NCBI GenBank assembly: GCA_000004695.1
Contig: CM000153.2
Coordinates: 1,056,001-1,120,000, forward strand
Source: Dictyostelium discoideum
Taxonomy: Eukaryota
Direction: 5' to 3'
Length of the DNA: 64,000 nucleotides
The number at the start of each line of letters is the position of its first letter. Position 1 is the first letter of the stretch. The position numbers were made by a program, and so were the translations under genes. The notes under the pieces are model-generated. The model saw only the letters and a program-made list of their open reading frames with translations, was not told the origin of the DNA and did not search any database. Positions 6,803-53,115 of the stretch are shown here, piece by piece.

Positions 6803-9800
6803 TAACTATTTATTATTATTATTTTTATAAAATAAAAAAAAAAAAAAAAGAGGGGATTTATATCTATTAGCAAAATTAATGTTATGTAAAGAAGATAAAA
6901 GAGTATTTAGAATAAAAGATAAGGCAATGTTAAAAATTTGTTCACATATTTGGGATTGTGATTTAGATGATATGATTGAAGATTTAGATAATGGTGATTT
7001 CACTGAAACTTGTAAAAAAGTAAAATACTTTCAATTCTTTTTTAAAATTTTTTTAAATTTATTTTTTAAATATATTAATATTAATATTTTTTTTTATTTT
7101 TTTTTTTAGTTTTATATAGAATATGGTAAATATCCAGAAAAAAGTACATTAACATTAAAAGAAGTTGACCAAGTATTGGATTCTTTAACAGTATCAGGTA
7201 AATTTGAAGATCAAGTAAAAATTATAAATAAATTATTGAAAAGATGTACACCATTCGATTTTAGATTAGTTTGTAGAATTATTGATAGTGATTTAAAAAT
7301 AAATACTGGTGCAAAATTCTTTTTAGATGCATTTCACCCCCAAGCATATGATGCATTTAAAAAAGCAAATAATTTAAAAGGTGTAATTGAAAAAATTCAA
7401 CAACATGATTTTGATAATGATAATGGTGATGGCGATGATGGTGATGGTGATGACAATGATGATGATGATGGTGATGGTGATAGTGATAGTGATAAAAAAA
7501 AGAAAAAATCAAGTGGTGGTAGTGGTAGTGATAGTGGTAGTAAGAAAAAAAGCAAATCATTTGAAGTTGCAATTAAATTAATGACACCAATTAAACCAAT
7601 GTTACCAAAAGCAGTTAAAACTGTTGAAGGTGTTGTAAAGAGTAGTGAATGCTTTTATGCAGAGATTAAATATGATGGTGAACGTATTCAAATTCATAAG
7701 GATGGTAATCAGTTTAGTTGTTATTCTCGTAATCTTAAACCATTAATGCCATGGAAAGTGGATGAAGTTAAACCATATATTCCAAAATCAACCAAAGCTC
7801 AACAGATGATATTAGATGGTGAAATACTTTTAATGGATACTAAAACCAGCCAACCTTTGCCATTTGGTACATTAAGTGCCCATAAAAAGAATGGGTTCAA
7901 AGATGCAACGGTTTGTGTGTTCCTATTCGATATTCTATATCTAAATGGTAAGTCATTGATTCATTTACCACTTAAAGAGAGAAGAGAAATCTTGGAAAAG
8001 AATGTAATGGTGGTTAAAAATCGTATTGAGTTCTCTGAGGTGACAATTGTTAATGGTGCCTCTGAGAAATCAAAATTGACGGCATTGTTGAACAGAGTAT
8101 TTAAAGAGAAACTTGAGGGTTTGGTAATCAAAGATGCAATGTCAGAATATGAGCCAGGTTGTAGACATTGGATAAAAATTAAAAAGGATTACATTCACGG
8201 TATGGCTGATAGTGCAGATTTAATTGCAGTTGGCGGTTACTATGGTTCTGGTTCGATGGGTGGTTTGGTAACGGTTTTTTTGATGGTATGTTATGATAAA
8301 CAAAATAAAATCTATAAAACAGTGGTCAAAGCAAGTGGTGGTTTGGATGATAATATGATTGCCAAACTTCAACCAAAAGTCACAAGTACAATGACAAAAA
8401 TTTCAAAAGAAGTTTCAAAGATTCCTTATTGGTTAGATTGTCCAAAGCAATATGCGCCAGATTTCATTGTAAAAGATATTAAACAAGCTATGATATTTGA
8501 AATTGAGTCAGCTGAATTCACTAAAAGTGATCATCATACCACTGGTTATTCAATGCGTTTCCCACGTATTCTCAAAATTAGACATGACAAAGATTATAAA
8601 ACTGCAACAACCCTTGAAGAATTGGTTGAAATTGGTAAAGATATTAAAATTGTTCCAGTTGGTAAAGGTGATAATAATTCACCAACAACTACTACTACAA
8701 CAACTACTACAACAACAACAACTACTTCATCAAAATTAATTAAAAAACAACAATTATCAGATGATGATGATGATAATGATAAAGACTCTAAACAGCAACA
8801 ACAAGAACCATCAAAATTAAAATTTGTTAGTGATGATTTATTAGATCCATTTAATGACAAGTCAGATGATGAATCAAATAAAATATTTATATTGAATTAT
8901 GTTGATAATTCAGGTATTTGGAATGAAAAGGGCTTATCAGGTGCAATTGGTAAGAAATGGCCATCAATCCCAAAATCATTTTCTCAAGGTGATTCAAACA
9001 TTATAAAGAGTGGTGAAATTCGTGTTGAAAAGGTAAAAGATGATTCAATATCAACAAATAAAAAAGTTTTTATTTGTAATCTTTCTTGTATTATCCCACC
9101 AAAATCTAAAAAAGAATCTTATACTTTCTCATTAAAAGAATTTAAATCTGCAATTAAAGAAGCAAAAGGTGCGATCAATCAAAAAAAAGCTTCAGTTCAT
9201 TTAGCAAAACCACAATTCACTTCACCATCTTGGTCTGAACTTGATGAAGTACTAACAAAAGAATTATATAATAGTGGTATTAAAGTATTTGTACATTCAA
9301 TTTCAAAATCATCACCAACTACAACATCACCAACTACAACTTCACCAACTACAACATCACCAAAAATAACATCACCATCATCATCATCATCACCTTCAAA
9401 TAAATTAAGCCCATTAAAAAGAGGAAGAGATGAAAAATTAGAACATGAAATCATTAAAGATATTGAACCATCTTTACCAATATTTGAGGATGTTAATGCT
9501 GTAATTGATAGTAAAACCATTGACCAAGTTGATGTAAAGAGATTAATAAATTCAATTAAAACTATGGGTGGTCGTGTATCAGATAAATGGCAACAAGTTG
9601 GTATTGGGAAAACAACCCATTTAATTTGCAATGGTATGAGCGATCTTTATTTACATGTCGATCGTTTAGGTGGTACAATTGTTTTACCAAATTGGGTTGA
9701 TCAATGTTTTGGTTCAGATAAATTATTACCATTACATGAGGATTATATTTATTTCAATAAAAAAGATCATCCAGATTATTCACAATCATCATCATCATCC

Positions 9801-11638: not shown

Positions 11639-14600
11639 TCAATAAATAATAAAGCGAACAATGAAGCATTTTTTGATAAAGATTCATTTAAAATAAAACT
11701 ACAGGTTATTAATCCAGAATCATATTCAGAGGAGGAAATTCAAGATATTAATTTAAATTCAGTTACATCTGAAGTTTATATGAATCCAACAACGTTAGGT
11801 GATAAATTACAGCAGCATCAACAACAGCAACATCAAAAACAACAACAAAAACAAAAAAATAAAAATACCACCACCTCCAATAATAATAATAAAAATAAAA
11901 ATAATAATAAAAATCATCATGATCATGCTGGTAGTAAAGATCAAATTAATTCATTAGAGGATGAAAAGAGGTATACACAAAGATATAGATATTTAAAGAG
12001 TAATGAAGAGATATTAAATAAACCAGTTTTTAAAGAGATTGAAGAGAGTCCAATGGCTCCATATAATAAGCCGTCTGGGTATATCATTTACCAAGAGAAA
12101 TCAAGTGAAATGTTACATGATGAGGTTGAATATGATATGGATAGTGAGGATGAAAAATGGTTAGAAGAATTTAATAAAACTACCAATAATAATTATTCTG
12201 AAGATATTTTTGAATATGTTATTGATCGTTTAGAGAAAGAAACTTTTAAATATGTATGTAAACACTTAAATATATATATATATTATATTATTAGGTTTGT
12301 TTATTTTATACTAATATCATTCATTCATTTATTTGTTTATGTAGAAACAAGAGATTGGAAGTGATATGTTTCCACATTTTAGTTCAGTTGAAGCAGATGA
12401 TGTTTGTGGTGTTTGTTTTGATGGTACATCTGATGATACAAATCAAATTGTATATTGTGATGGTTGTGATATAGCAGTGCACCAAGATTGTTATGGTATA
12501 CTATTGATCCCCGAAGGTCATTGGTTTTGTCAAAAATGTGAATCACCAGATAAAGATTCAATTTCATGTGTTTTATGTTTTAAAAAGAATGGTTCTTTCA
12601 AACAAACTATCGATGGTGAATGGGTTCATTTGGTTTGTGCCTATAATATACCAGAACTATCTCAAATTATAAGTAAGTTAAAAAAAAAAAAATAATAAAC
12701 AAAAAAATATTATAATTATCATTATTACGAAATACTAATTATTAATATTATTTTCTATACAAAAAAGAAAAAGGTAGTGGTAGAGAAAAACTTGGTCCCC
12801 CAGGACTACTTAGTAATATTTTAAAGAAAAGAAAGAAATTAAAATGTATTATATGTAAAAAAATAGGTGGTGCTTGCATTCAGTGTCGTGAAAGACATTG
12901 TTCTGTGGCATTTCACCCTTATTGTATAAAAATGAATCAAAAATCAATGATTGATGAAAACTTAAATCCTCATATAATATTTTGTAAAAAACATGTAAGT
13001 ATATATATGATGGTATTACTTTTAATAAAAAAAATAATTAATTTTTTTTTATTTATTTTAGTTTTTAAGAAATAATAATATAAATGGAAATGTTAAAGAT
13101 ATTTTAGATGATGATGGTAGTAGTAGTGATGGTAGTGAAAAAGAAAATAGTAGTGACGATGATGATTATACAGATAGTAGTGATGAACATGATATATCTG
13201 GTGATGATGATAATGATGATGATGATAATGATGACGATAGTTTCGAGGTAATTAAAACGCCCTCTAAAAAATCTCATATTTCAAATAAATCTTCAAAATC
13301 TACACCATCTAAATCTAATACGAATTTAAAATCAAAACCACAACCACCAAAACCAAAGTTAAAATCAAAATCAAAATCTACACCATCTAAAAAAAAGGCA
13401 AATCATAAAAAGAAAAAAAAAAAAATTGATTCAACTGATGAAGATGAAGATAGCAATAATGAAAAAGAGGATGAGAATGAAGAAGATGAAGATGAAGAAG
13501 ATAGCGAAGAAGAAGAAGAAGAGGAAGAGGAAGAGAAAGAAGAAAAAGAAAAAATAAATAATAAAAATAAAAAGAGAAATAATAAAAATAATAAAAATAA
13601 TAATATTATTATTGATGGTAGAAAAAAGAAGAAATTAAAAACAACAGATAGTAATAATAATAAAGTGGCTACTGTCACAGCAAAAGATACAACAACTACA
13701 ACAACTACAACTACAACAACAACAACTACTACATCAACAACTACTACAGGTATTACAGCAAAGAAAGTAGGTTTAATATCATCATCAAGAGCAGCAAAAG
13801 TAATTAGAAAAGTTCCAAGTACATTTGTTCATGCAGTTTATGATTATTGGGTAAAGAAAAGGATATCAAGAAGTGGTTTAGCATTAATTAAAAGATTCCA
13901 ACCATCGATTCTATTTAGTTTGAGATCAACATTACATGCAAAAGATCCAGGTATTAATTCAGTTTCAGATTATAATAAAATGTTATCAATTCGTGAAGAT
14001 TTGGAAAGAACTAGAACCATCTTGGAGTTGGTAAAGAAAAGAGAGAAACAAAAGAGAGAACTAATTATAAATATACGTAATGAAATCGAGTCTACAATAC
14101 TTAATGATTATTACTTTCTTAGAATGGTTTTAAAGAGTTTGGAATCCATTGAACAATTAAGACCTTTCTATGTACCAGTTTTGGAAGAAGAAGCACCTTC
14201 TTACTTTTTAATCATTAAACAACCAATGTCATTTCAACAAATTAAACAATCTCTAAACACTTATGCCTACGAGAATACTGATGACTTTTGGAAAGATATA
14301 ACTTTGATCTATACAAACGCTCAATTATTTAATTGTTCAAAAACTTCAGTTTATAAAGCCTCTCGTTTACTTCAAGAGATTGCTAATAAACTAGAATCTG
14401 ATTGTCCTCCAAAAGTAACCCCTGAAGAATTGGATGACTTTATAAAGAATATTAAATATCCTTCAAAGAAACTTTTAACAACTAATCACAAAAAATTTTC
14501 AACACCATTAAAATCAGTATCATCATCAGTATCATCATCATCATCATCATCAAATACAACAAATACACAGTCAACACCAATAAAAACTACTCCAACTGAA

Positions 14601-16482: not shown

Positions 16483-17637
<1,155 letters not shown>

Positions 17638-18073: not shown

Positions 18074-20134
<2,061 letters not shown>

Positions 20135-21531: not shown

Positions 21532-22425
<894 letters not shown>

Positions 22426-28413: not shown

Positions 28414-31242
28414 ATTAATAAAATTCCATTTGTTTATTATAAAGATTGTAATTATGAAACGAGAAAAAAGATATTACAATTAAATTTAGTTGAAAAAAAA
28501 GTAATTTATAATAGTTCAAAATTTGAAATTAAATTAAATGGTAAAAATCAAGATGAAGAAATTGATGAATTAAAAACAAGTATTCATGAATTTTTTCAAA
28601 TATTTGGTAAAAAGTATTTTCAAACACCAATTCATATATTAAAAAGAATTGAATTGATTGAATGTAATTATGATGGTGTTGGTGGTAGTGATGGTGATGG
28701 TGGTGGTGATGGTGGTTCTATTTCAAAATCTAATCAAATTAAAGAATTGATGGAAATTTTATTAATTGAATGTCAATTTGATTTTAATTTATTTAAAATT
28801 TATTATCAAAGATTTAATGATACAAAAGTATTAGATAAAACAGATTCAATAACTAATAATAAATTTTTATTATACTTATTTCAAACAATGGATTGTAATG
28901 GATTATTATATTTTACAAACAATCATATATCTGTAACATTAAATGAAAGGAATTCATATATAGCATCATCTAATAGTATTACAAGTGGTGGTGATGGTAA
29001 TAATTTAATAATTAAAATATTTAATCAAAATTATCCAATTTTTCAAATTAAATTATTAGAATCATTATTAGAAACTAGTGATGGTAGATATAGAATTATT
29101 GAATTTATTAAATTTTGTAATAATCAAGATTTAATTAAAATTGAGATATGGGATACATTAATTAGATATTTATTATATTCGAATAAATGTGATTGTAAAT
29201 TTTTAGATAAAATTATTTCAATCGATGGTTTCAATAAGAAATTAGTATTATTAAAATTAAAAAAACTGTCAAATCAAATTAGACCATTTGAAAAATATAA
29301 ATGGTATATTGAATCTGTTAAACAATTTATTAAACCACTTGAATATTTTGAATATAACAGTTTTTGGGAACGTAATGAAATTGAATCGATTGAACATGTT
29401 GATTACATTTTTGAAAATAAATTATCATCATTTTATACACAACAAGTTTTAAATGAAACAAATAATAAATTAATTGAAATTAATTTTAAAATCTTGGATA
29501 TCAATACTGCAAATCATTTTCATAATAAATTTCCATTCATATCAAAAGAACAAATTTATACAGATTGTTACATTAATGCATTAATTAATTGCACTGATTT
29601 AAAAACAATAGATTTAATAAATAATTTACAAGTTAATATAAAGTCAATACAATCAAAATTAAATTTTAATTCAAAATTAGAAGACTCAATTCAATTATTA
29701 ATATATTTATGTAATTATTGCAATAATTCATTATCATGGCAACCTGATTTCTTTTTTAATTTCTTTTATTCATTATTAAATTTTATTTTTAAAAATGATA
29801 ATTCAAATCACATCACTCAAGAATTATTAAAAGAAGTTTCATTTAATAATTTTTATTTTGAAAATTATAATTGTGAAATGATTTTATTATTATCAACATT
29901 TATTTTAGAATTAAATTTACAACAAGTTAAATTTTTAATATCAAGTTTTAATTTTAATTTTAATAATCAACAACAAATTCAGCCAATTAATATTTTTAAA
30001 ATATTTCCAAATCAACAACAACAACAACAAGATCATCACCATACTAATGATTTTAAATGTATTGTTGAAATGATGAATTACCTTTTAGATAATGTGGTAC
30101 CACCATCATCATCATCATCATCATTTTCACAAATAATATTATTTGATGAAATTTTTAATCATTTATTTAAAAGATTATTAATATCAAGTGATATTTCATT
30201 TAATGAAATTTTAACAATAAAATCATTTTTAATTTCAAATGGTATAAATTTAATTGATGATACACCATTTCATTTATTTAATTACCTTTTAATTAAATCA
30301 CCTTATTTTTTAAAATATATTTTAAAATCTCATCCAGAGGGTATAGAACTAGGTGAACATATATCAATTCAAAAAATAATGACATCAGAATTATTTAAAC
30401 CAGTTAATAATGATAATAATGTAGAAAATCAATCATTTATTTTTAATTCAAAGTTTTTTACACTCGATTCAATTATAAAAAGTAGTTTTAATCAATTATT
30501 TCAATTATTATCTTCACTATACTATTCAAATTGGTTAAGTAGAGGTTTAGATAGAAATAATTTCGATTTTAAATTTATATTATCGATTGGTAAATTTGAT
30601 TTAATGTCTGAAATGTTATTAAAAAAACAGTTTAAACCATTTCCAATAATGATACCACAAATTTTAAAACTACAAGATATTAAATTAATTAAATTATATA
30701 TAACTAGTTTAATAGAATATTATCAAAATAATGATAATAATAATAACAATATACATGTATATAGATTACTTTTAGAAGCAATCAAAACATCAAATTTATC
30801 AATTACACAAATAATTTTAGAGAATTTTAATGAATTTAATTTGGATATTGAAACATTGGATAAAACAATTAAAGACACCATTAACCTTTTTGAAAAAACT
30901 GATTCTCAACTTATCACCTACATATTTAAACATCATTTACATCTATTTAAATTTAATAATAATAATGATAATAATAATAATACCTCATATAAAAAGATTT
31001 TTGAGCAATTTTTCATCAATGGTTCAATAGAAGTAACTCAACTATTTTTTGAAATGTTCCCTTCTCAATCATCCAAAGATTTAGAAATCACTAAAGATAT
31101 GATATCAATAGCCCTTAATCGTAAAAATATTAATATTATTAAATATTTTTATCAAAATGGTAAAATTTCAAAAATTCCACTTATCAATCATATTAAAGAA
31201 TCTTTAAAAAATGAATTGGATCTTATTGACTGGTTAGAATAA
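27586..31242 (+). CDS. Large (1218 aa) Asn/Ile/Lys/Phe-rich protein of unknown function, single exon
   Basis: A 3.66-kb uninterrupted ORF in roughly 80%-AT DNA cannot arise by chance, since TAA/TAG/TGA are frequent there. ATG sits in an A-rich context. No recognisable catalytic motif. A short GGSDGDGGGDGG tract and homopolymer Asn runs are present. Confidence 0.6.
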
Positions 31243-32124: not shown

Positions 32125-32346
32125 CAAAAAGAGATGTTCAATTATTGGATTATTATTATTTTTAAATAATAAAAATTTTAAAAACTAATGAAAAAAAATT
32201 GTTTAGTTAATTTTTTTTTTTTTTTTTTTTTTACTGATTTTGGCTCCACCATCCACCAAAACTTCATAATATTTGATCGAAATATCTTTTTAATTAATCG
32301 CCACTAATAATGATATATTTTAATGAGAATATAATCATATTTTAAT

Positions 32347-32475
<129 letters not shown>

Positions 32476-32741
32476 TATTATAATTATTAAAAAAAAATAA
32501 TTGAATCCCTTAAAAAAATAATATAAAAAAAAAATATATTTACATATCTCGATATCTATTATCATCTCTTTTTTCACCCCATTTTTATAATTAAAAATAA
32601 ACTTTTTTTTTTTTTTTCCCAATATATATTATTTCCTTATTTAATATGTAAATAATATTTAATAATTATAATTATAATTTTTATTGTTGTTATTGCCTTC
32701 ATTACAATAACAATTTTATTGAAAATGGAGTGTGCCGAAGG

Positions 32742-38706: not shown

Positions 38707-39472
38707 ATGAAAATTATAAAGTATTTTTATACTTTCATACTCTATTTTTTATTTTTATTTAATTGTTTGGCGTTTGTTAAAAGTGGTGACCTGGAATGTA
38801 AAAATAATTTATTATTAAAATATCAAGTATTTGCAAATACTTTGTGCGATTCAGCAGAAGTTAATACCACAACAATCACTTTTCGTGCAACTTGTATAAA
38901 TAATATTCTTTACACTTTGTAAATATCAACTTGAAGTAATAATAATAATAAAAATAATAATAATTAATAACTAATTTTAAAAATTAATTTAAAATAGCCA
39001 TATTACTCCAACTGCTAGCGCACCAAATGTTACATTGACTTATGATGATTTGAATTGCTTCACAGATCTTTCTGATATGTAATTATTTAAAATATATAAT
39101 TAATTATTTTTTTTTTTAAAATAAAAAAAAAAAAAAAAAAAAACATGGATTTTAATAGTGTACAATAATTAAAAAAAAAAAAAAAAAAAAAAAAGGGTTT
39201 TCACAAATGTTAGATTCAATGGAAATGCATTTGGACAGGAGAATCAACAACAGGTAGCAAAAAGACTTTATTTTATTAATTGTACATTTGAGTCTGGTGA
39301 AATTGGTGATTCCCTTTCAAAAAACACAACTCTAGTTTGGATTGAATTTAATGAGAATTCAAATTTAAAAAATATTTATTTTTTAAATATTAAACATTTA
39401 GAAACATTGTAATTATAATTTAATATTATTTCCTATGGCCTATAAGTTTCAATTTTAACTAACTTTTTGGTG

Positions 39473-39512
<40 letters not shown>

Positions 39513-42500
39513 AATAAATAAACTTTAATAGTATACTAACTAGAATAGGCGATTTGGCTAAAATTCCATATATTGATAATAATCTTCAAAATCCTTCATA
39601 TCATTTTAAAGAAATGTTTGTATAAATTAATATTATTATTATTAAAATTTTCTTTCCAAATATTAATTTCAGTTTGGAAAAAAAAAAAAAAAGAATATTA
39701 GTTACAGAACAATTAATGTCATTTAATGGTTTAAATTGTTCAAGAATGACTATTACACTTATAAATGCAACAGAACAACATAGTGGATTAGATTTTTTAA
39801 ATACCATTAATAGTATTGATGAATTGAATTTAGATTTTGGTGATAATTTAATTGCCTTTCCAGGTATAATAGGTTCAAACAATAATAAATTAAAAACTCT
39901 TTCAATTTCAGGTAAATTTAAAAAACCATCAATTATAGGATTAACTATTCAAGAAGGCCTTCAAGAGTTTTCAATTAATGGTGGTGGTGAATTATTTAAT
40001 ATTAATGGTGCTTTACCATTCTTAACTATTCCATCTTCATTAAAGTTATTTTATATTGCTGATATTGGTTTAACCACTTTTCCAACCTTTCCACTTAATA
40101 TTGAAACAATGTAAATATATATATATATATATAGTTTAATTTTTTTTTAATTTTTTTTTTAAATACTAATTTTAAAATTTTTTTTTATTAATTTATTATT
40201 ACTATTATTATTATTAAAAAAAACTATTAGATTAATTTATAAAAATAATTTTGGAGGCATTTTACCAGATTTGTCAAGTTATAAAAAATTATCACATGTT
40301 TCTTTAGCAGAGTGTGGTTTCACTGGTACAATTCCAGAAAGTTATTGTATGTTTACTGGTACTTTAAATAATAATTCACTTACTGGTTTTTGGCCCCAAT
40401 GCAAAATATGTTATTTTGATAATTTTGAAGAAAGTTTTGATGGTAATCCATCACTAGAGAAAGGAAATTGTGGTATGTATTATAAATTAAAAATAAAAAA
40501 TAAAATATATATGATTTTATATTAATATTAATATTAAAAAATTTAGAACCAGGATCAATTGTTCCAAATTTAGAATATTATAATGTTTCAAATGAAATAA
40601 CATTATATGGAGAGAATTTAGGCATTTTCGGTCCAGGTAATATTTATAATATAGGATTTAAAGTAATAAATAGACAATCATTATTTAAAGCAATTTGGAA
40701 TGAAACAGCCAATGGTATAATTCCAAATATTATTGAACTTAATTTTGGTGGTACTAATTTTAAATTAGCAACTAAATCTTTAAAACCAATAGTTCAATCT
40801 ATTACAAAGCTTGGTTCTAATTATGCTTTTAAAGGTGAAAATTTCTCTTATAATAAAGAACATTTTGAAGTTAAAATTGGTGGTGTACCATGTGAAATTA
40901 ATTATATTGCTTTTGAAATTATTAAATGTAGTTTCAAAACATCAATATTACCAAATAATGGTATAGATATCAAATCAACAATTCAAAATTTTAATATAGA
41001 TCAAATAATTTCATTCACTGTAAATACAATTGATAATAAAACAACAGATATTTTAACATGTGCATCTGAATGTCTTAATGGTGGTTTTTGTAGTTCAACA
41101 AGTGGTAATTGTATTTGTGGTGAAATATATAAAGGATCTGATTGTGCTATTTTAAAGACATGCCAAAACAATTGTATAGATTCAAATCATGGATATTGTA
41201 ATTATACAAGTGAAAGTTGTGTTTGCGTTAATGGTTGGTCTGGTAATGATTGCTCAACTATGGTTTGTACTTCTGATTGTAGTGAACCTTTAGGTAATGG
41301 AAAATGTGATACAACCACTGGAATTTGTAAATGTTCTCAACAATATACCAGTGATGATTGTAGTTTACCAAATCAATATATTTCATCAGTATCATCAGTA
41401 CCAACAAGCGGTGGTGTTGTAAATATCTGGGGTTGGTTTGGTACAATACATTCAGGATTATCAATTATGATTGATCAACAAGTTTGTCAACATGATGTTA
41501 ATTCAATTACTAGTAGTTTTATAAATTGTACAGTTGGTGCTGGTAGTGGTACACAATCAATTACTCTCACTCAAAATGGTATTACATATACTGGTAATAA
41601 TATGTTCCATTATACTGAATTAACATATAGTTGTCCAAAAGATTGTTCAAATAATGGTAAATGTAATACAAATACAGGTCAATGTAAATGTAATAGTGGA
41701 TGGGGTGGTTATGATTGTAATTCAAAAAAAACAACTCAACCATCAACATCATCATCATCATCAACAACAACTACAGCATCCTCTTCAACAACTGGTTCTA
41801 CTGAGACACCAACACCAACTTCAACACCAGTAGTTGAAATTCCAAAATCAAATACTACAATCAATGAAGATTTAGGTTCAGCAGTTATCAATAATCAACA
41901 GACAACATATGAAATTTCAATTTTATCATTAATTGAAACTGATTTTTCAAATAATATTGTAAATACATTTAATTTATCAAAGAAATGGACAGCTTCAGTA
42001 AGCACAGATAATATCTATAAATTTACTCAAACAATTCAAGAATCATGTAATATCACATACACTATTGAAGAGATTAAAACAGAAAGAGATTATCAATGGG
42101 CAGGTTTAGATTTAACATTGGATAAAGATTCAATCAAAATTTCAGTCTCAATTAAAAATTACACTTTTAATAGTGTTTTAAATAATCTTCAATTAAGATT
42201 TGAATCATTAGTAGGTGATAATAATAAAAATACTCAAGATAATAATGAATGTAATAATAAAGATACTCAAGTTGATACAAGTGAAATCGATAAAAATCAA
42301 TTATTAAATTATGTAACAATATCAAGAAATCAAAAAGTTTTATATGGTCGTTTCATTAATAGAGTTATTAGTGATTCAAGACAAACTTTTATAACAACCT
42401 CTGTAATTCCAAATAATAATAATAATAAACAATCAGTGATCATTGGATTAAATCTTCCACATTGCACGCATGAATGTTTAATTGATCCTGATTTCTCTGT

Positions 42501-42702
42501 TTTGGTTTCACCATCATATCAAGAATGTTCTAGTGATTTAAATAATGGTCGTGCCAGTTGGGTATTACCTGTTGCTATCGTTGTACCTTGTGTTGCTGTT
42601 GCTGCCATTATTATTATTAGTGCGGTATTGTATAAAAAGAATCGTTTATCTTTTTTGATTGTCAAAAATAAGTTAAATAATATAAAACTTTCCAAAAAAT
42701 AA
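38707..42702 (+). CDS. Paralog A of a tandem family of type I membrane glycoproteins (signal peptide, LRR-like segments, IPT/TIG domains, four tenascin-type EGF modules, Ser/Thr stalk, TM helix, short cytoplasmic tail); 7 exons approx 38707-38918, 38998-39078, 39196-39408, 39532-39615, 39673-40110, 40231-40472, 40547-42702
   Basis: Signal peptide MKIIKYFYTFILYFLFLFNCLAFVKS. LRR-like exons such as ...LNIETM / ...LSHVSLAECGFTGTIPESYC...NSLTGFWPQCKICYF match the plant-LRR-like LxxNxLxGxIP pattern. The 2.16-kb last exon holds IPT-like KGENFSYNKEHFEVKIGGVPCEINYIAFEIIKC. EGF modules are CASECLNGGFCSSTSGNCICGEIYKGSDC, CQNNCIDSNHGYCNYTSESCVCVNGWSGNDCS, CTSDCSEPLGNGKCDTTTGICKCSQQYTSDDCS, CPKDCSNNGKCNTNTGQCKCNSGWGGYDCN. 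Then a Ser/Thr stalk and TM helix WVLPVAIVVPCVAVAAIIIISAVLY plus tail KKNRLSFLIVKNKLNNIKLSKK. Phase-consistent GT...AG introns were derived by eye. Confidence 0.7.
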
Positions 42703-43058
42703 AAAAAGTAAAATTGTGAATAGAAAAAAAAAAAAAATTAAAAAAAAATTAAAAATAAAAATAAAGAAAAAAAATAGAAAAAAAGAAAATTTAATTTAAT
42801 TTAAATTAATAAACATATCCGAATACCATTTGTAACACTCACATTTGATTGTGTTGATCAAAAAAAAAAATTTTTAATCAAACCTTGAATTGTGAAAGGT
42901 CAGAAAATCTTAAATTACTTGAAATTGAGAAAATAAAAAAAAAGGTTGGATATCCTAAATGAGAGTCCAAGGTGGTTAAAAAAAAAAAAAAAATAAAAAA
43001 TAAAAATTAAAAATTTTCAAAAGAAATCGTGGTCACAAATAACAATCAAAAAAATAAA

Positions 43059-46000
43059 ATGAAATCAAATTTTTTATTTAATTTCTTTTTACTATTATTT
43101 TTTATTAATATCCTAAAATTTGGTATTGTAAAATCAAGTAATTTGATATGTTTAAATAGTATTTCAACAAAATTGGCAGGAAGCACAATTTCAGATTATT
43201 GCACTAATGAATTAACAGTAAATTTATATTCATTTTCATATAGCACAGTATGTAATGGAACAACTCTAACTCAACTGTATGTAGAGTTCATTCTTTTTTT
43301 TTTAATTTTCTAAAAAAATTAATACTAATTATTTTTAACTTCTTTTTTATAGAACTCTTAGTACCATTTTATACAATAATAAAAGTTTGTCATATACTGA
43401 ATTAAATTGTTTTGAAACAACATTAGAATCACTGTAAAATACCAAAATTATATTATATTATTACAATTTTTTTTATTTTTTTTATTATTATTATTATTTT
43501 TTATATTAATATGATGATGATTTTTTTTTTTTTTTTTTTAATTTTTAGAATTTTAAATAGTATTTTAATACATGAAGATTCCTTTGGAGTTGAAAACCAA
43601 CCAGCAATTGCTGATACAATTACTTTAAGTAATGTTACATTCATAGGTAATTAATTTATAATAATAATTTTTTAATTTTTTTAATATTTCTCGAAAATAA
43701 TATTAATTCATAATTAAATAGATGGAAGATTTACATCTCTTGGAAATTCTTTACCATTTAATACAAGCACTTTAAACATTTTTAATCTTGGAACATCAAA
43801 TTTACTCTTTATTGATTTTTTAGCTATTAAAAACCTAAAAACATAGTTTGTATAATTAGTGATATTAAAATTAAATATTATTTTTTTTTTTTATTAATTT
43901 TTTTTTTTTTTTTTTTTAAAAATTTGAAAAAAGCTATACAATTAATTTTAATTCTTTAGAACCTTATCCAACATATACCAATAGTTTAACTAGCCCAGAC
44001 TTTAAAATGGAAAAAATGTAGGTACTTTTATTATAAATTAAAAAAAAAAAAAAAAATTCTAATATTATATATAAACAGAACAATGGCTTTATCAAACATT
44101 CCTTCTTTTTTAAATGTTGTAGTTGACTATCTAGAATTGCTATTAGTTGGAACATCATTTTCTTCATCACAATTATCAAATTTAGGAACAATGACTCATG
44201 TTTCAGCTTTGGCTTTTAAATCGAATTCTGCTATTGAATATCCAACAGAGTTAGGTTCAGCAAATAACAGCATTACTACTTTAACGTTGACAACACCACT
44301 TCTTGCATATGCTAATTATGCTCTCCCTCCAAACCTTGCCCTGCTTTATGTTAGTGCAGGTTCAAATTTCAATTTTAACAAAAGGCTCCCATTCAGTGTA
44401 TTCCCGTCTTCTTTAAAATCTATATTTATTGGAGCTATTGGTATTGATTCTTTTAGTCAGGTCCTTCCTCAAACAATTGAAGCTATGTAAGTATTATTTT
44501 TATATATATTATTATTTTTACCATTATTAGAATAAAAAATATTAATTGTAGAAAATTTCAATCAATTCAAATAGAACAATTTCAAATAATCCTATGGGAC
44601 CAAGAAATTTACCAAGTTTTGAGCATTACACAAACTAACTCAACTTACCCTAACAGGATGTGGATTTACTGGAACAATTCCAGAATCATATTGTTTATTT
44701 GATTGTGTGTTAAGTTCAAATAATTTAAATGGTACATTACCTCAATGTAAGATTTGTCATGCTGAAGAAAATTATGGTAAATTTGAAAGTAATCCAAATT
44801 TAACTCAAGGAATATGTTGTAAGTATAGTAATTTAAAAATTAAAAACTAAATGGTAATTCTAATTATAAACTTTATTAGATCCAGGATCAATCGTTCCAA
44901 ATTTAGATTATAATAATATTACCAAGAGTTTAGAATTATATGGAACCAATTTAGGTTTACATGGTCCATTAATAAAAGAAACAAATCAAACATTTGCAGT
45001 TAATCTTCCACAATCTTCATTCAAATTAAATTGGAATGAAGTTGTTTATGGTACAATTCCTAATACAATTGATATAAAAATTTCAACAAAATACTATACA
45101 TTGGCAACTAAATATTTAAAACCAACAATTTTTGAAATTACAAGGTCTGGTAATACCTTTACATTCAAAGGAAAAAACTTTTCTTACAATATCAGTGTTA
45201 TTGAAATTAAAATTTTAGATATTGAATGTCCAATAAGTTATAGTGAATTTACTATTATTAATTGTAAATCTAATAAAACTCAATTGGGTAATTCAATCCA
45301 AGGAACAATTCAAAATAAAATGTCTACTGAAATTATTCCATTTTATCTAAATACAAATGATAATTCAACATCAATACAATGTAGTACTGATTGTAATGAA
45401 CCTTTAGGTAATGGAAAATGTAACATCGCAAATGGAATTTGTAAATGTATCAATGAATTTATTGGTAATGATTGCTCTATACCAAATCAATACATTTCAT
45501 CAGTATCATCAGTATCAACAAGTGGTGGTGTTGTAAATATCTGGGGTTGGTTTGGTACATTACATTCAGGATTATCAATTATGATTGGTCAACAAGTTTG
45601 TCAACATGATATTAATTCAATTACTAGTAGTTTTATAAATTGTACAGTTGGTGCTGGTAGTGGTACACAATCAATTACTCTCACTCAAAATGGTATTACA
45701 TATACTGGTATTAATATGTTCCATTATACTGAATTAACATATAGATGTCCAAAAGATTGTTCAAATAATGGTAAATGTAATACAAATACAGGTCAATGTA
45801 AATGTAATAGTGGATGGGGTGGTTATGATTGTAATTCAAAATCATCAACTGATGGTGGAACTACAACAACAATATCATCATCATCATCAACCACAGGTAC
45901 AACTCAAACACCAACACCAACAAAGGAAATTCCAAAATCAAATACAACCATTAATGGAACTGATGGTTTAACTGTTTTGAATAATCAACAAACAACATAT

Positions 46001-46810
46001 GAAATTTCAATTGTATCATTAATTGAAACTGATTTTTCAAATAATATTGTGAATACATATAACTTATCAAAGAAATGGACACCTGTAAACCATACCAATA
46101 TAAATATCTATAAATTTACTCAAACAATTCAAGAATCATGTATTATCACATACACTATTGAAGAAGTTAAAACAGCAAGAGAATATCGATGGGCAGGTTT
46201 AGATTTAACATTGGATAAAGATTCAATCAAAATTTCAGTCTCAATTAAAAATTACACTTTTAATAGTGTTTTAAATAATCTTCAATTAAGATTTGAATCA
46301 TTAGTAGGTGATAATAATAGAAATACTCAAGATAATAATGAATGTAATAATAGAGATACTCAAGTTGATACAAGTGAAATCGATAAGAATCAATTACTAA
46401 ACTATTTAACAATATCAAGAAATCAAAAAGTTTTATATGGTCGTTTCATTAATAGAGTTATTAGTGATTCAAGACAAACTTTTATAACAACCTCTGTAAT
46501 TCCAAATAATAATAATAATAATAAACAATCAGTGATCATTGGATTAAACCTCCCACATTGTAAAAATGAATGTTTAATTGATCCTGATTTCTCTGTTTTG
46601 GTTTCATCATCTTATCAAGAATGTTCAAGTGATTTAAATAATGGTGGTCGTGCCAGTTGGGTATTACCTGTTGCTATCGTTGTACCTTGTGTTGCTGTAG
46701 TTTTAATAGCAATTATTGTTGCAATTTTATACAGAAAGAATCGTTTGGCATTTTTAATTGCAAAAAGTAAAATTAATGATATTAGATTATCAAAGAAAGA
46801 ATTAAAATAA
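43059..46810 (+). pseudogene. Paralog B of the same family; 3' terminal exon (about 44881-46810) intact and nearly identical to paralog C, but 5' exons carry an in-frame TAG, a splice-phase inconsistency and a 1-nt frameshift. Likely pseudogene, or sequencing errors
   Basis: Exons approx 43059-43276 (MKSNFLFNFFLLLFFINILKFGIVKS...), 43353-43433, 43549-43646, 43721-43848, 43960-44017, ~44077-44487, ~44555-44828, 44881-46810. Exon 4 reads ...FIDFLAIKNLKT-TAG (TAG at about 43843-45) where paralog C has ...FVDFYSIKYLTYL. Exons 4 and 5 cannot be joined in frame. In exon 7 the homologous frame runs NLPSFEHYTN-TAA, then resumes in another frame as KLTQLTLTGCGFTGTIPESYC; one A is missing from an A-run near 44630. 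The terminal exon encodes IPT, two EGF modules, stalk, TM (WVLPVAIVVPCVAVVLIAIIVAILY) and tail RKNRLAFLIAKSKINDIRLSKKELK. Confidence 0.45.
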
Positions 46811-46968
46811 TTAAATGTGACATATACGCTTTTTGAGTGCCATTCGAATAAAAAAATAAATTCGAATAAAAAAATAAATTTGAAAAAAAAAAAATCATTT
46901 TCTAAAAACACTTCGCTAAAAATAAAAAACATGCGGTTTTTCTTGAAATATAAATATCTAGGTAAACA

Positions 46969-47004
<36 letters not shown>

Positions 47005-47071
47005 TTTTTTTTTTTTTTTATCACTGCAAAGAAAAATAAAAATAAAAAAATATTAAGATAATTAAAATAAA

Positions 47072-48871
47072 ATGAAATCAATTTTTTATTATTTTTATTT
47101 ATTGATTTTTATTGTCTCACTCAAGTTAACCATTGTTAAGTCAACAGATGAAATATGCTTAAATAATTTATTAATTAGTTTCTTTGGAGAAAAAACTAAT
47201 CAGTATTGCACAGGTGGCGATATAATAAATTCTACTGGGAATTTATCTTCTATAAGTGTTGTTTGTAATGCACAATATAATATTGTGGAATTGTAGGTTA
47301 ATTATAATATTAAAAAAAAAAAAAAAAAATAATAATAATAACGATTAAAATAATTTAGAAAACTTTTTAATAATATTTATTTTTGTATAGATATATTGAA
47401 AATAATGGTGTACTTGTTACAAAAAGTTTAAATTACAATGATTTTAATTGTTTTTCAGGTTCTCTTAATACTTTGTAAGAAAATGAATTAAATATATTTA
47501 TTTTTTATTATTATAAAATGATTTAATGATTAACCTTTTATTATTATCATTTAATTTAGAAAAATCAATGGTTTACCTATATCAGCTGATGCATTTGGAA
47601 CTGATATGCAAACAAAGGTTGCACAACGTATAGAATTAACCGATTGCACATTCCCAGGTTGGTATTTATAATTAGTATTATTAATTCAAATCACCCACAA
47701 AATTATTAATTAATATTTAAATTTTAAAACTAGATGGTAGATTTTCCTCAGTTGGAAATGCTTTAGCAAATACTACTAAATATATTTCAATTAAAATCAA
47801 TGATAATTCCAATTTAAATTTTGTAGATTTCTATTCAATCAAATACCTTACTTATTTGTATGTTTTGATATTATTATAATACTTTTATTATTTTATAATG
47901 ATGCTAACTCTAATTAAAAAAAAAAACAAAAAAATAGTCATGTAACTCTTAATAATTCAAATGTTGAGCCTCCAACCTTTTCTAATACTCTTCAAACTAG
48001 TGATAAGCCTTCTCTTTCAGAAGTGTATGTTTTTTTTAAAAAAAAAAGAAAAAAAAAAAAAACTATAAATAATAATAAAATACTAATATTAAATTTAATA
48101 GGAATTTACCTTTAAAAAATATTCCATCATTTACGTATCTTTTGATAAACTCACTCTCAATAAGTTTGGTTGGAAATTCATTCACTGAAGCCGAATTATT
48201 AAATTTAGGTACATTAAATGTTACTTATTTAGCATTAAAAAAAGAAAACCTTGCAATGGATTATCCAAATTCAATTTCAAGTATTACCAAAGTTATTGGT
48301 CTAACTGTATATGGTTCTTTTACAGCAAGAGCCAGTGGTTATTCTCTCCCACCTAATTTAAATAATCTAGTACTTGCACCAGATGTAAGTTTCAATTTTA
48401 ATGGTAAATTTCCATTCCTTGGTACATTACCACTCAAATTGACCTCTATTTCTATTGGTTCAATAGGTCTTACAACATTTCCTGATAATTTTCCTCCAAA
48501 TATTGAAAAACTGTAATTATTATTATTATTATTTTTATTATTATTTAATATTATTATTTATTTATTTTTACTATTTTGAATAATTTGATTTTTAATACTT
48601 TAAAATAGATCTTTAAATTATAACAAAATGGATCCACAAACAAATTTACCAGATCTTTCATCTTTTTCTAAATTAAAAGAAGTTTTATTAATATCAAATC
48701 AATTCACAGGTCCAATACCCAATTCTTATTGTTTATTCAAGGTCTCATTAAATTCAAATAATTTAACTGGTGATTGGCCTCAATGTTTAATTTGTTTCCC
48801 ATATTATAATGTAAATAATTTGAACGGCAATCCATTTTTAAATAGGGGAACTTGCAGTATGTTTTATTATT

Positions 48872-48936
<65 letters not shown>

Positions 48937-50881
48937 CTAATTACTTTTCAAACTTTTAGATCCAGGATCAGGGGTTCCAAATTTAGAATATGAAAGTAGT
49001 TCAAAATATTTTGAACTTTATGGAGAAAACCTTGGTTTGGCTCCCCCAACCATTGAAAATCAAGCATTTAAAGATATAATCATACCAAATTCAAGATTTG
49101 GATATAGTTGGAATGAAGGGCTATTAGGACCAGTTCCAGATATAGTAAAAGTAAATATCTCTTCAAAAATCTATTTGATGGCTACCAAATATTTAACACC
49201 TCAAATAAGTACCATTACAAAAGCTGGTAATGATTTCACTTTTAGAGGTATTAATTTTTCTTATAACAAAAACCAATTTACTATAAAAATTGCTGGTGTT
49301 GATTGTGTAATAAGTTATATTGAATATGGTATTATAAATTGTAGTAATATCGATTCCGTTCCGTTAGGTCATTATGTTCCAGGTACATTGGAAAGTCAAA
49401 AATCAACAGAAATCATTACATTCTACATTAATACAATTGATAATAAAACATCTGACATTATTAAATGTAATTCTGATTGTAATGAACCTTTAGGTAATGG
49501 AAAATGTAATACTACCAATGGAATTTGTGAATGCACTCAACAATATACCAGTGATGATTGTAGTTTACCAAATCAATTCATTACATCAGTATCATCAGTA
49601 CCAACAAACGGTGGTGTTGTTGATATCTGGGGTTGGTTTGGTACAATACATTCAGGTTTATCAATTATGATTGGTCAACAAGTTTGTCAACATGATGTTA
49701 ATTCAATTACTAGTAGTTTTATAAATTGTACAGTTGGTGCTGGTAGTGGTACACAATCAATTACTCTCACTCAAAATGGTATTACATATACTGGTAATAA
49801 TATGTTCCATTATACTGAATTAACATATAGTTGTCCAAAAGATTGTTCAAATAATGGTAAATGTAATACAAATACAGGTCAATGTAAATGTAATAGTGGA
49901 TGGGGTGGTTATGATTGTAATTCAAAATCATCAACTGGTGGCGAAACTACATCAACATCATCAACCACAGGTACAACTACACCAACCTCATCACCAGTAA
50001 TTGAAATTCCAAAAACAAATACAACCATTAATGGAACTGATGGTTCAACTGTTTTGAATAATCAACAAACAACATATGAAATTTCAATTTTATCATTAAT
50101 TGAAACTGATTTTTCAAATAATATTGTGAATACATATAACTTGTCAAAGAAATGGGATCCTGTAAATATTACATCAAATAATATCTATAAATTTACCCAA
50201 ACAATTCAAGAATCATGTATTATCACATACACTATTGAAGAAGTTAAAACAGCAAGAGAATATCGATGGGCAGGTTTAGATTTAACATTGGATAAAGATT
50301 CAATCAAAATTTCAGTCTCAATTAAAAATTACACTTTTAATAGTGTTTTAAATAATCTTCAATTAAGATTTGAATCATTAGTAGGTGATAATAATAGAAA
50401 TACTCAAGATAATAATGAATGTAATAATAGAGATACTCAAGTTGATACAAGTGAAATCGATAAAAATCAATTATTAAATTATGTAACAATATCAAGAAAT
50501 CAAAAAGTTTTATATGGTCGTTTCATTAATAGAGTTATTAGTGACTCAAGACAAACTTTTATAACAACCTCTGTAATTCCAAATAATAATAATAATAATA
50601 AACAATCAGTGGTCATTGGATTAAATCTTCCACATTGTACACATGAATGTTTAATTGATCCTGATTTCTCTGTTTTGGTTTCATCATCTTATCAAGAATG
50701 TTCAAGTGATTTAAATAATGGTGGTCGTGCCAGTTGGGTATTACCTGTTGCTATCGTTGTACCTTGTGTTGCTGTTGTTTTAATCATTATCATTGGTTTT
50801 ATTTTATTTAAAAAGAATCGTTTGGCATTTTTAGTCGCCAAAAATAAGATGAAAGGTCTCAAATTAAAAGGATTATCATAA
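47072..50881 (+). CDS. Paralog C of the same family, apparently intact (about 1064 aa); 8 exons approx 47072-47292, 47391-47474, 47560-47657, 47724-47847, 47938-48024, 48102-48512, 48609-48856, 48960-50881
   Basis: All junctions are phase-consistent: MKSIFYYFYLLIFIVSLKLTIVKS...NIVEL / YIENNGVLVTKSLNYNDFNCFSGSLNTL / KINGLPISADAFGTDMQTKVAQRIELTDCTFPG / DGRFSSVGNALANTTKYISIKINDNSNLNFVDFYSIKYLTYL / FHVTLNNSNVEPPTFSNTLQTSDKPSLSEV / VNLPLKNIPSFTYLLINSLSISLVGNSFTEAELLNLG...NIEKL / SLNYNKMDPQTNLPDLSSFSKLKEVLLISNQFTGPIPNSYC...NRGTC / NPGSGVPNLEYESS... Then IPT (ATKYLTPQISTITKAGNDFTFRGINFSYNKNQFTIKIAGVDCVISYIEYGIINC), EGF (CNSDCNEPLGNGKCNTTNGICECTQQYTSDDCS), second IPT, EGF (CPKDCSNNGKCNTNTGQCKCNSGWGGYDCN), stalk, TM WVLPVAIVVPCVAVVLIIIIGFILF, tail KKNRLAFLVAKNKMKGLKLKGLS. 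Confidence 0.75.

Positions 50882-51654: not shown

Positions 51655-53115
<1,461 letters not shown>

Follow-up and report, generated by a model that had tools for sequence, protein, structure and literature searches.

The window analysed here is a 64,000-nucleotide (nt) stretch of the Dictyostelium discoideum AX4 genome (assembly GCA_000004695.1, contig CM000153.2, forward-strand positions 1,056,001–1,120,000) with a G+C content of ~15–30%. It contains a triplet of tandem ComC-like paralogues, A, B and C, which are all encoded on the plus strand and are placed on chromosome 4 by protein searches. Gene A (DDB_G0283869, a name obtained from a cluster look-up) spans positions 38707–42702, with its start at 38707 and its last exon at 40540–42699 according to tblastn. 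Gene B (DDB_G0283853) spans positions 43059–46810 and has the same architecture as A and C. Gene C (DDB_G0283787) spans positions 47072–50881 and encodes 1064 residues, and its translation from the window is 100% identical to the public protein. Each gene is closed by one long last exon. Defined blocks of this exon evolve in concert among the three copies, the remainder of the genes follows orthology, the boundaries between the two are conserved across species and homogenised patches differ between strains.

The gene A product is a predicted type I membrane protein that consists of a signal peptide, a leucine-rich repeat (LRR) region, a first IPT domain (IPT1), three EGF modules, a second IPT domain (IPT2), another EGF module, a Ser/Thr linker, a ComC supersandwich domain, a membrane helix and a short tail. 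The Pfam ComC_SSD profile (PF22933; cutoff 24 bits) is matched over its full length by A (E = 1.7e-61), B (E = 3.6e-62) and C (E = 3.7e-63). LRR_ComC (PF24141; cutoff 27 bits) matches the D. dimigraforme C orthologue with 39.5 bits (E = 6.7e-10) and has no match at E ≤ 0.01 in AX4 gene C or in the B copy of strain FIR. EGF_2 and EGF_Teneurin are above cutoff in A and B, and C passes EGF_2 only, with its last exon scanned alone. The Pfam TIG matches are weak and fall below cutoff in AX4 gene B.

In the AlphaFold2 model of C (mean predicted local distance difference test score 82.5), the repetitive strands of an LRR-type repeat region occupy residues 60–420. Two β-sandwich (IPT) domains (residues 430–590 and 630–710) enclose an EGF module, and a second EGF module is found after residue 710. 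A disordered Ser/Thr linker (residues 751–771) leads to a large β-sandwich (residues 778–998), which is followed by the membrane helix (residues 1018–1043). Foldseek matches of the model include the GLMP luminal domain, TLR2, LRRC8A, internalin, LGR4 and the IPT domains of plexin and Met; their template modelling scores are low for this full-length multidomain query, and the matches served only for fold naming. On the basis of the profile matches and the model, A, B and C are predicted to be LRR-headed, single-pass surface proteins of the ComC family. A literature search found no functional study for the three gene identifiers.

The three genes were aligned in 100-nt windows, and exact segment figures were obtained by codon alignment. 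The 3′ parts of A, B and C are far closer to each other than the 5′ parts. Paralogue amino-acid identity is ~30–37% in the LRR exons and 46–51% in IPT1, the non-converted first part of the last exon (A 40549–41055, B 44882–45373 and C 48962–49459; 60–64% nucleotide identity). In A, IPT1 is followed by a 204-nt in-frame insertion (41056–41259) that encodes two extra EGF modules. These modules occur in every A orthologue of the seven genomes compared below and lack a counterpart in B and C. An intron was considered for this ~200-nt A-only stretch and rejected, as the frame is open and encodes the two modules. A transition zone corresponding to EGF1 (A 41260–41369, B 45374–45483 and C 49460–49569) comes next, with identities of 89% for A–C, 74% for A–B and 77% for B–C.

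Two converted blocks and an intervening island make up most of the rest of the exon. Block 1 (A 41370–41727, B 45484–45841 and C 49570–49927) encodes IPT2 and EGF2 and is 96.6–97.8% identical at the nucleotide level. The island (A 41728–42009, B 45842–46102 and C 49928–50179), which comprises the indel-containing Ser/Thr linker and the N-terminal supersandwich strands, is 75–85% identical with 15–39 gap columns. It holds a homogenised sub-stretch of ~100 nt (A 41890–41988) and ends in a paralogue-specific 8-codon loop (A 41989–42009, T-ASVSTD; B 46079–46102, TPVNHTNI; C 50156–50179, DPVNITSN). Block 2 (A 42010–42599, B 46103–46698 and C 50180–50775) covers the supersandwich core, the juxtamembrane region and the N-terminal half of the membrane helix with 96.4–98.2% identity. 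The non-converted end of the exon (A 42600–42702, B 46699–46810 and C 50776–50881) encodes the C-terminal half of the membrane helix, the cytoplasmic tail and the stop codon and is 63–69% identical. The 3′ limit is located in the middle of the membrane helix, where ASWVLPVAIVVPCVAV is common to the copies and the remainder differs. Past the stop codon, paralogue identity drops to 40–55%.

The first-pass annotation, which was made from the window sequence alone, had described the triplet as a mosaic in which ~1.3 kb at the 3′ end, starting at the first EGF module and ending at the stop codon, is 97–99% identical and the 5′ exons are strongly diverged. The mosaic is real, as identity is not uniform along the 100-nt windows, and its step lies inside one exon, as proposed. 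The extent and degree of near-identity were overstated, however. Over A 41380–42699, the measured identities are 90.4% (A–B), 91.0% (A–C) and 93.0% (B–C), EGF1 lies upstream of the blocks and the last ~100 nt fall outside them. A 126-nt string put forward as common to the three genes has exactly three occurrences (42100, 46193 and 50270; zero expected by chance). The quoted IPT1 peptides are also correct, but the 40–50% amino-acid identity assigned to the LRR exons is higher than the values found. The cytoplasmic tails differ as quoted, although the tract does not end before the membrane helix, where it had been placed.

Syntenic triplets were compared between AX4 and six other genomes: two strains labelled D. 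discoideum (FIR and FIW), D. cf. discoideum (FIZ), D. citrinum, D. dimigraforme and D. firmibasis. An extra AX4-like D. discoideum assembly, GCA_054883475 (L007), was fetched as an independent check. The order A, B, C and the flanking genes are the same in every fetched assembly, with cysteine proteinase 3 on one side and a ribosomal RNA adenine dimethylase gene on the other in 7 of the 7 genomes. The triplication is therefore older than the split of these species. D. dimigraforme alone carries three extra called genes between A and B (L004 5064–9399), one of which encodes calcium-binding EGF and FXa-inhibition domains. Its A gene is still homogenised with B and C despite ~5.5 kb of added spacing.

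The alignment of all 21 genes (A, B and C of seven genomes) separates two modes of evolution. In sliding windows over the 5′ parts, paralogues within a genome are 0.45–0.67 identical, compared with 0.6–0.98 for orthologues. In the blocks, the relation is reversed: the paralogues of each of the seven genomes are 0.95–0.99 identical, whereas AX4 and its D. citrinum, D. dimigraforme and D. firmibasis orthologues are 0.87–0.93 identical. A 60-nt map resolves the concerted sequence into stretches at A 41389–41721, 41881–41970 and 42028–42600. Neighbour-joining trees with bootstrap, built for each segment, display the same alternation. The IPT1 tree consists of orthologue clades with 100% bootstrap. 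In the trees of blocks 1 and 2, the genes cluster by genome, with bootstrap values of 100 and 100% for D. citrinum, 100 and 100% for D. firmibasis, 72 and 100% for D. dimigraforme and 94 and 100% for D. cf. discoideum, respectively. The island tree returns to orthologue clustering (A clade, 100%), and so does the tail tree (A, 76%; B without D. firmibasis, 93%). The tree of the short EGF1 segment is mixed. The converted patches are thus bounded upstream by IPT1, downstream by the tail and also internally by sequence that clusters by orthology.

Synonymous sites are homogenised as well. Synonymous (dS) and nonsynonymous (dN) divergence was estimated by the Nei–Gojobori method. In block 2, dS is 0.02–0.11 between paralogues but 0.22–0.45 between orthologues (AX4 versus the three other species). 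Paralogue dS in AX4 is 0.03–0.04 in block 1, and it reaches 0.5–1.5 in IPT1. A GENECONV-type run test (our own implementation of Sawyer's test; 927 polymorphic sites and 2000 permutations) detected significant runs of concordant sites within genomes, with p ≤ 0.0005 in 20 of the 21 within-genome pairs and p = 0.0035 for D. firmibasis B–C. Moreover, species-specific residues are found in all three copies of a genome: DYQF, NNNNQENNQC and RAISD in D. citrinum, LRIESL and IKVAR in D. dimigraforme, and GDSNANT, KILYG and CINEC in D. firmibasis. Patches also differ between D. discoideum strains. At A-coordinates 42072–42095, gene C has the B-type haplotype in AX4 and the A type in strain FIW, which indicates that the events are recent and recurrent. 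Taken together, these data make it highly probable that the blocks evolve in concert through ongoing interlocus gene conversion in each lineage and not through purifying selection alone. Gene conversion of the 3′ half had been proposed by the first-pass annotation, and the genome clades, the low dS, the run test and the species-specific residues bear this out. The notion of a single recent conversion does not hold, as at least three stretches are homogenised and conversion has recurred over a long time in every lineage.

The limits of the converted stretches differ in character. The first peak of divergence in the island coincides with the Ser/Thr linker and the first supersandwich strand, where paralogue indels of 3–33 nt produce a physical break in homology. 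The 8-codon loop is a much smaller feature. In six of the seven genomes, paralogues match at only 5–15 of its 21–24 nt, whereas its flanks of 99 and 120 nt are 87–100% identical. The loop peptides are kept among orthologues, as T-(A/T)S... in A, (T/A/M)P(V/L/A)N.T.. in B and DPVN(I/V)(T/S).N in C. In the AlphaFold2 model of C, the loop is positioned between the strands at residues 813–818 and 833–839. Selection against loss of the loop would be the simplest account of so small an island inside active tracts. Upstream, the 5′ limit for exchanges with A coincides with the 204-nt EGF insertion of A, and the B–C limit is found at the start of IPT2 without a comparable indel.

D. firmibasis departs from this pattern. 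Its B and C genes share 97–100% identity throughout the last exon, with neither the loop nor the tail excepted, and 76–87% identity in the LRR part, and they group together in every tree partition. These features suggest that replacement has been wider or more recent in this lineage. Both genes look C-like (B, L005 ~7300–9595; C, 12159–14081), and B contains an internal tandem duplication of the IPT2–EGF2 module (~118 residues). In D. purpureum, a distant relative, two adjacent genes on the same contig (DICPUDRAFT_155266 and 155267) exhibit 35–38% amino-acid identity in the LRR, IPT1 and EGF1 regions. Identity rises to 97–99% between IPT2 and the end of the supersandwich domain and then falls to 68% over the membrane helix and tail. 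Judged at the protein level, the outer limits of the AX4 triplet appear to recur in D. purpureum.

Several points weigh against conversion held within selected limits. In the island tree, the B and C orthologues form distinct clades with bootstrap values of only 16–28%. The third-codon-position G+C content of the converted blocks is 0.10–0.11, compared with 0.13 for IPT1 and 0.19 for the tail; the blocks thus lack the rise expected of GC-biased conversion, a bias that commonly accompanies conversion elsewhere. Transfer events, tract lengths and direction are read from site patterns and are not seen directly, and with one to three genomes sampled per species, shared polymorphism is not quantifiable. 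The island is homogenised in D. purpureum and in D. firmibasis B/C and is therefore not protected everywhere, and that selection keeps the limits stable is something that we infer. Finally, mean orthologue dN/dS is lowest in the supersandwich core (0.14–0.30, compared with 0.34–0.62 in the LRR part), and this constraint adds to the similarity at the protein level.

The last point is also what would be expected if there had been no conversion and the 3′ module had never diverged under very strong purifying selection, and many core residues are indeed invariant across the wider ComC-like family. However, constraint alone cannot make paralogues younger than speciation, and the block 2 dS of paralogues lies far under that of orthologues, species-specific substitutions occupy all three copies and genome clades are obtained at 100% bootstrap. 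Purifying selection alone is therefore insufficient, and we regard this explanation as extremely improbable. The opposite possibility, that diversifying selection on the 5′ ectodomain is the main cause of the contrast, had been offered as an alternative by the first-pass annotation. It draws on the faster nonsynonymous evolution of the LRR and IPT1 regions (dN/dS 0.3–0.6, with a single value of 1.3–1.5 for A IPT1 versus D. cf. discoideum). Apart from that pairwise A IPT1 value, none of the regions has an average dN/dS above 1. Paralogue dS is saturated in IPT1 and 10-fold lower in the blocks, a difference that amino-acid selection cannot produce. Diversifying selection is thus not needed and very improbable as the main cause, although it may add to the contrast between the 5′ and 3′ parts without explaining it.

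Two further explanations concern how the copies came to be. Birth-and-death evolution or unequal crossing-over, with loss and re-duplication or crossover chimeras in each lineage, could account for D. firmibasis, where B and C resemble a more recent duplicate pair in their LRR identity and tree positions and where B carries the internal module duplication. Nevertheless, six genomes retain three copies in the same order with the same flanks, and their 5′ parts and downstream tails keep A/B/C orthology. One crossover would replace everything to one side, and the small orthologous islands within the homogenised zone call for short internal patches. Such turnover is thus very improbable, if somewhat less so than either form of selection. 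An assembly artefact, with a single copy collapsed or repeated threefold in the AX4 reference, deserves attention because tandem repeats are hard to assemble in a genome of ~22% G+C and the reference is an older, Sanger-based assembly. The copies, however, are distinct: they differ in each block by 8–21 scattered substitutions plus codon indels, and the same mosaic is present in six further assemblies. GCA_054883475 is collinear with window positions 28669–52748 at 99.57% identity and has zero differences at 39482–46967 and in all three 3′ regions; its other differences from AX4 are almost all homopolymer lengths outside coding sequence. Given this exact match of the three 3′ regions in an independent assembly, misassembly is excluded for practical purposes and is the least probable of these explanations.

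In the highly probable course of events, duplication gave rise to the three tandem genes in a common ancestor of D. discoideum, D. citrinum, D. dimigraforme and D. firmibasis. Recurrent non-reciprocal interlocus conversion has since overwritten one last-exon cassette in each lineage, which extends from IPT2 and EGF2 over the ComC supersandwich core and takes in half of the membrane helix, the first, such that the cassette copies stay 96–98% identical within a genome, including at synonymous sites. The LRR and IPT1 regions, Ser/Thr linker, 8-codon loop and cytoplasmic tail escape homogenisation and evolve as ordinary orthologues. Because orthology is maintained on both sides and copy number is constant, the events were probably short non-crossover patches that arose in homologous repair between adjacent copies. 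The limits are probably set in part by heterology, namely the 204-nt EGF insertion of A, the linker indels and sequence that is already 35–40% diverged, and probably in part by selection against losing paralogue-specific determinants in the loop, the tail and the ligand-binding LRR region. It is conceivable but rather unlikely that the identity of the cassette is itself selected, with the paralogues pairing or sharing one partner via the membrane-proximal module.

Gene B of AX4 has a 1-bp deletion at ~44634 (window 44621–44645, CACAAA-CTAACTC) that causes a frameshift in an LRR exon. At this site, five other genomes carry CACAAACCTAACTC or a sequence close to it. The deletion is also present in the independent assembly and is therefore probably real in this strain lineage. 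Because of the frameshift, the public DDB_G0283853 model comprises only 628 residues, and it is possible that AX4 gene B is a pseudogene or has a truncated N terminus.

Between AX4 and strains FIR and FIW, mismatches amount to ~4.8% in the triplet and ~3.1% in the flanks. The triplet was considered as a polymorphism hot spot, but its value is not striking for strains that are divergent everywhere and already ~3% from AX4 in the flanks. The two assemblies other than AX4 and GCA_054883475 that are labelled D. discoideum, GCA_054859385 and GCA_054859355, exhibit ~3% mismatches from AX4 even in the flanking genes (comparison with window 33000–61000) and many indels. Flank divergence of ~3% is far above expectation within D. 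discoideum, and these two assemblies may represent cryptic relatives.

Elsewhere in the window, self-comparison revealed five stretches (16880–17340, 19250–19920, 21610–21800, 32300–32490 and 52380–52570) that are mutually ~75–93% identical. Positions 16880–17120 form a long AAT trinucleotide run that is typical of the genome and has no bearing on the triplet, and the sibling stretches are presumed to be similar. A scan of the window for transfer RNA genes found none.

The triplet adds an example to a well-known phenomenon, the mosaic interlocus gene conversion of tandem paralogues. No report of conversion or concerted evolution at this locus or in this Dictyostelium family was found in the literature. 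The theory of interlocus conversion with islands of divergence has been reviewed by Fawcett and Innan (PMC3924837), and examples include the GOT1 paralogues of Tigriopus (PMC3728101) and HMA4 of Arabidopsis halleri (bioRxiv 10.1101/2025.10.29.685298). Diverged islands in such converted paralogues have been read as sites selected for different functions (PMC3924837, PMC3728101 and bioRxiv 10.1101/2025.10.29.685298). As in GOT1 and HMA4, near-identity in the triplet is kept over part of the gene length far beyond the age of the paralogues, and short diverged islands persist. Unlike those systems, the triplet consists of three copies in a haploid, mostly clonal amoeba, its limits hold in at least five species with the outer ones recurring in D. 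purpureum, and one of its islands measures only eight codons.

Plant nucleotide-binding leucine-rich repeat (NLR) clusters such as RPP8 (PMC6771003) resemble the triplet in being tandem genes with variable LRR regions and sequence exchange between paralogues. In NLR clusters, where the genes are highly polymorphic, exchange has been described above all as generating diversity (PMC6771003). In the triplet, by contrast, exchange homogenises the non-LRR, membrane-proximal module, the LRR part is without sign of exchange and divergence between strains is only modestly above that of the flanks.

Within Dictyostelium, the triplet belongs with the ComC family in possessing the supersandwich domain (E ~1e-62), EGF modules, IPT/TIG domains and a predicted N-terminal LRR region. 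The triplet genes, entered as 'hypothetical protein' without a gene name, are distinct from comC itself, and the closest other AX4 family member found is 34% identical. The Dictyostelium allorecognition genes tgrB1 and tgrC1 are adjacent and encode single-pass IPT/TIG surface proteins that act in multicellular development. In the triplet too, neighbouring genes encode single-pass surface proteins that carry immunoglobulin-like IPT domains, but neither an LRR nor a ComC supersandwich domain is present in the Tgr proteins. Nothing in the present comparisons points to unusual polymorphism or a role in recognition for A, B and C. Both tgr genes are listed as IPT/TIG adhesion genes in a study that describes comC as a group-4-specific developmental gene with EGF domains (PMC4931340), and it is after comC that the Pfam families ComC_SSD and LRR_ComC are named.

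The triplet leaves the general understanding of gene conversion unchanged and provides a well-resolved natural case of domain-limited concerted evolution in a social amoeba, with limits that are stable in several species and an 8-codon island that resists homogenisation. Unless the 3′ cassette is left out, ComC-like genes yield misleading trees and orthology calls; the AX4 copy of B is frameshifted. If the identity of the cassette is itself selected, which is rather unlikely, the LRR region, 8-codon loop and tail would carry paralogue-specific specificity and signalling, conversion would be retained as a means of joining a shared 'stalk' to diversifying 'heads', and the recurrence of the outer limits in D. 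purpureum would reflect function and not chance heterology. The unconverted LRR and IPT1 regions, the loop (A 41989–42009) and the tail are the likely sites of functional difference among these three uncharacterised developmental surface receptors.

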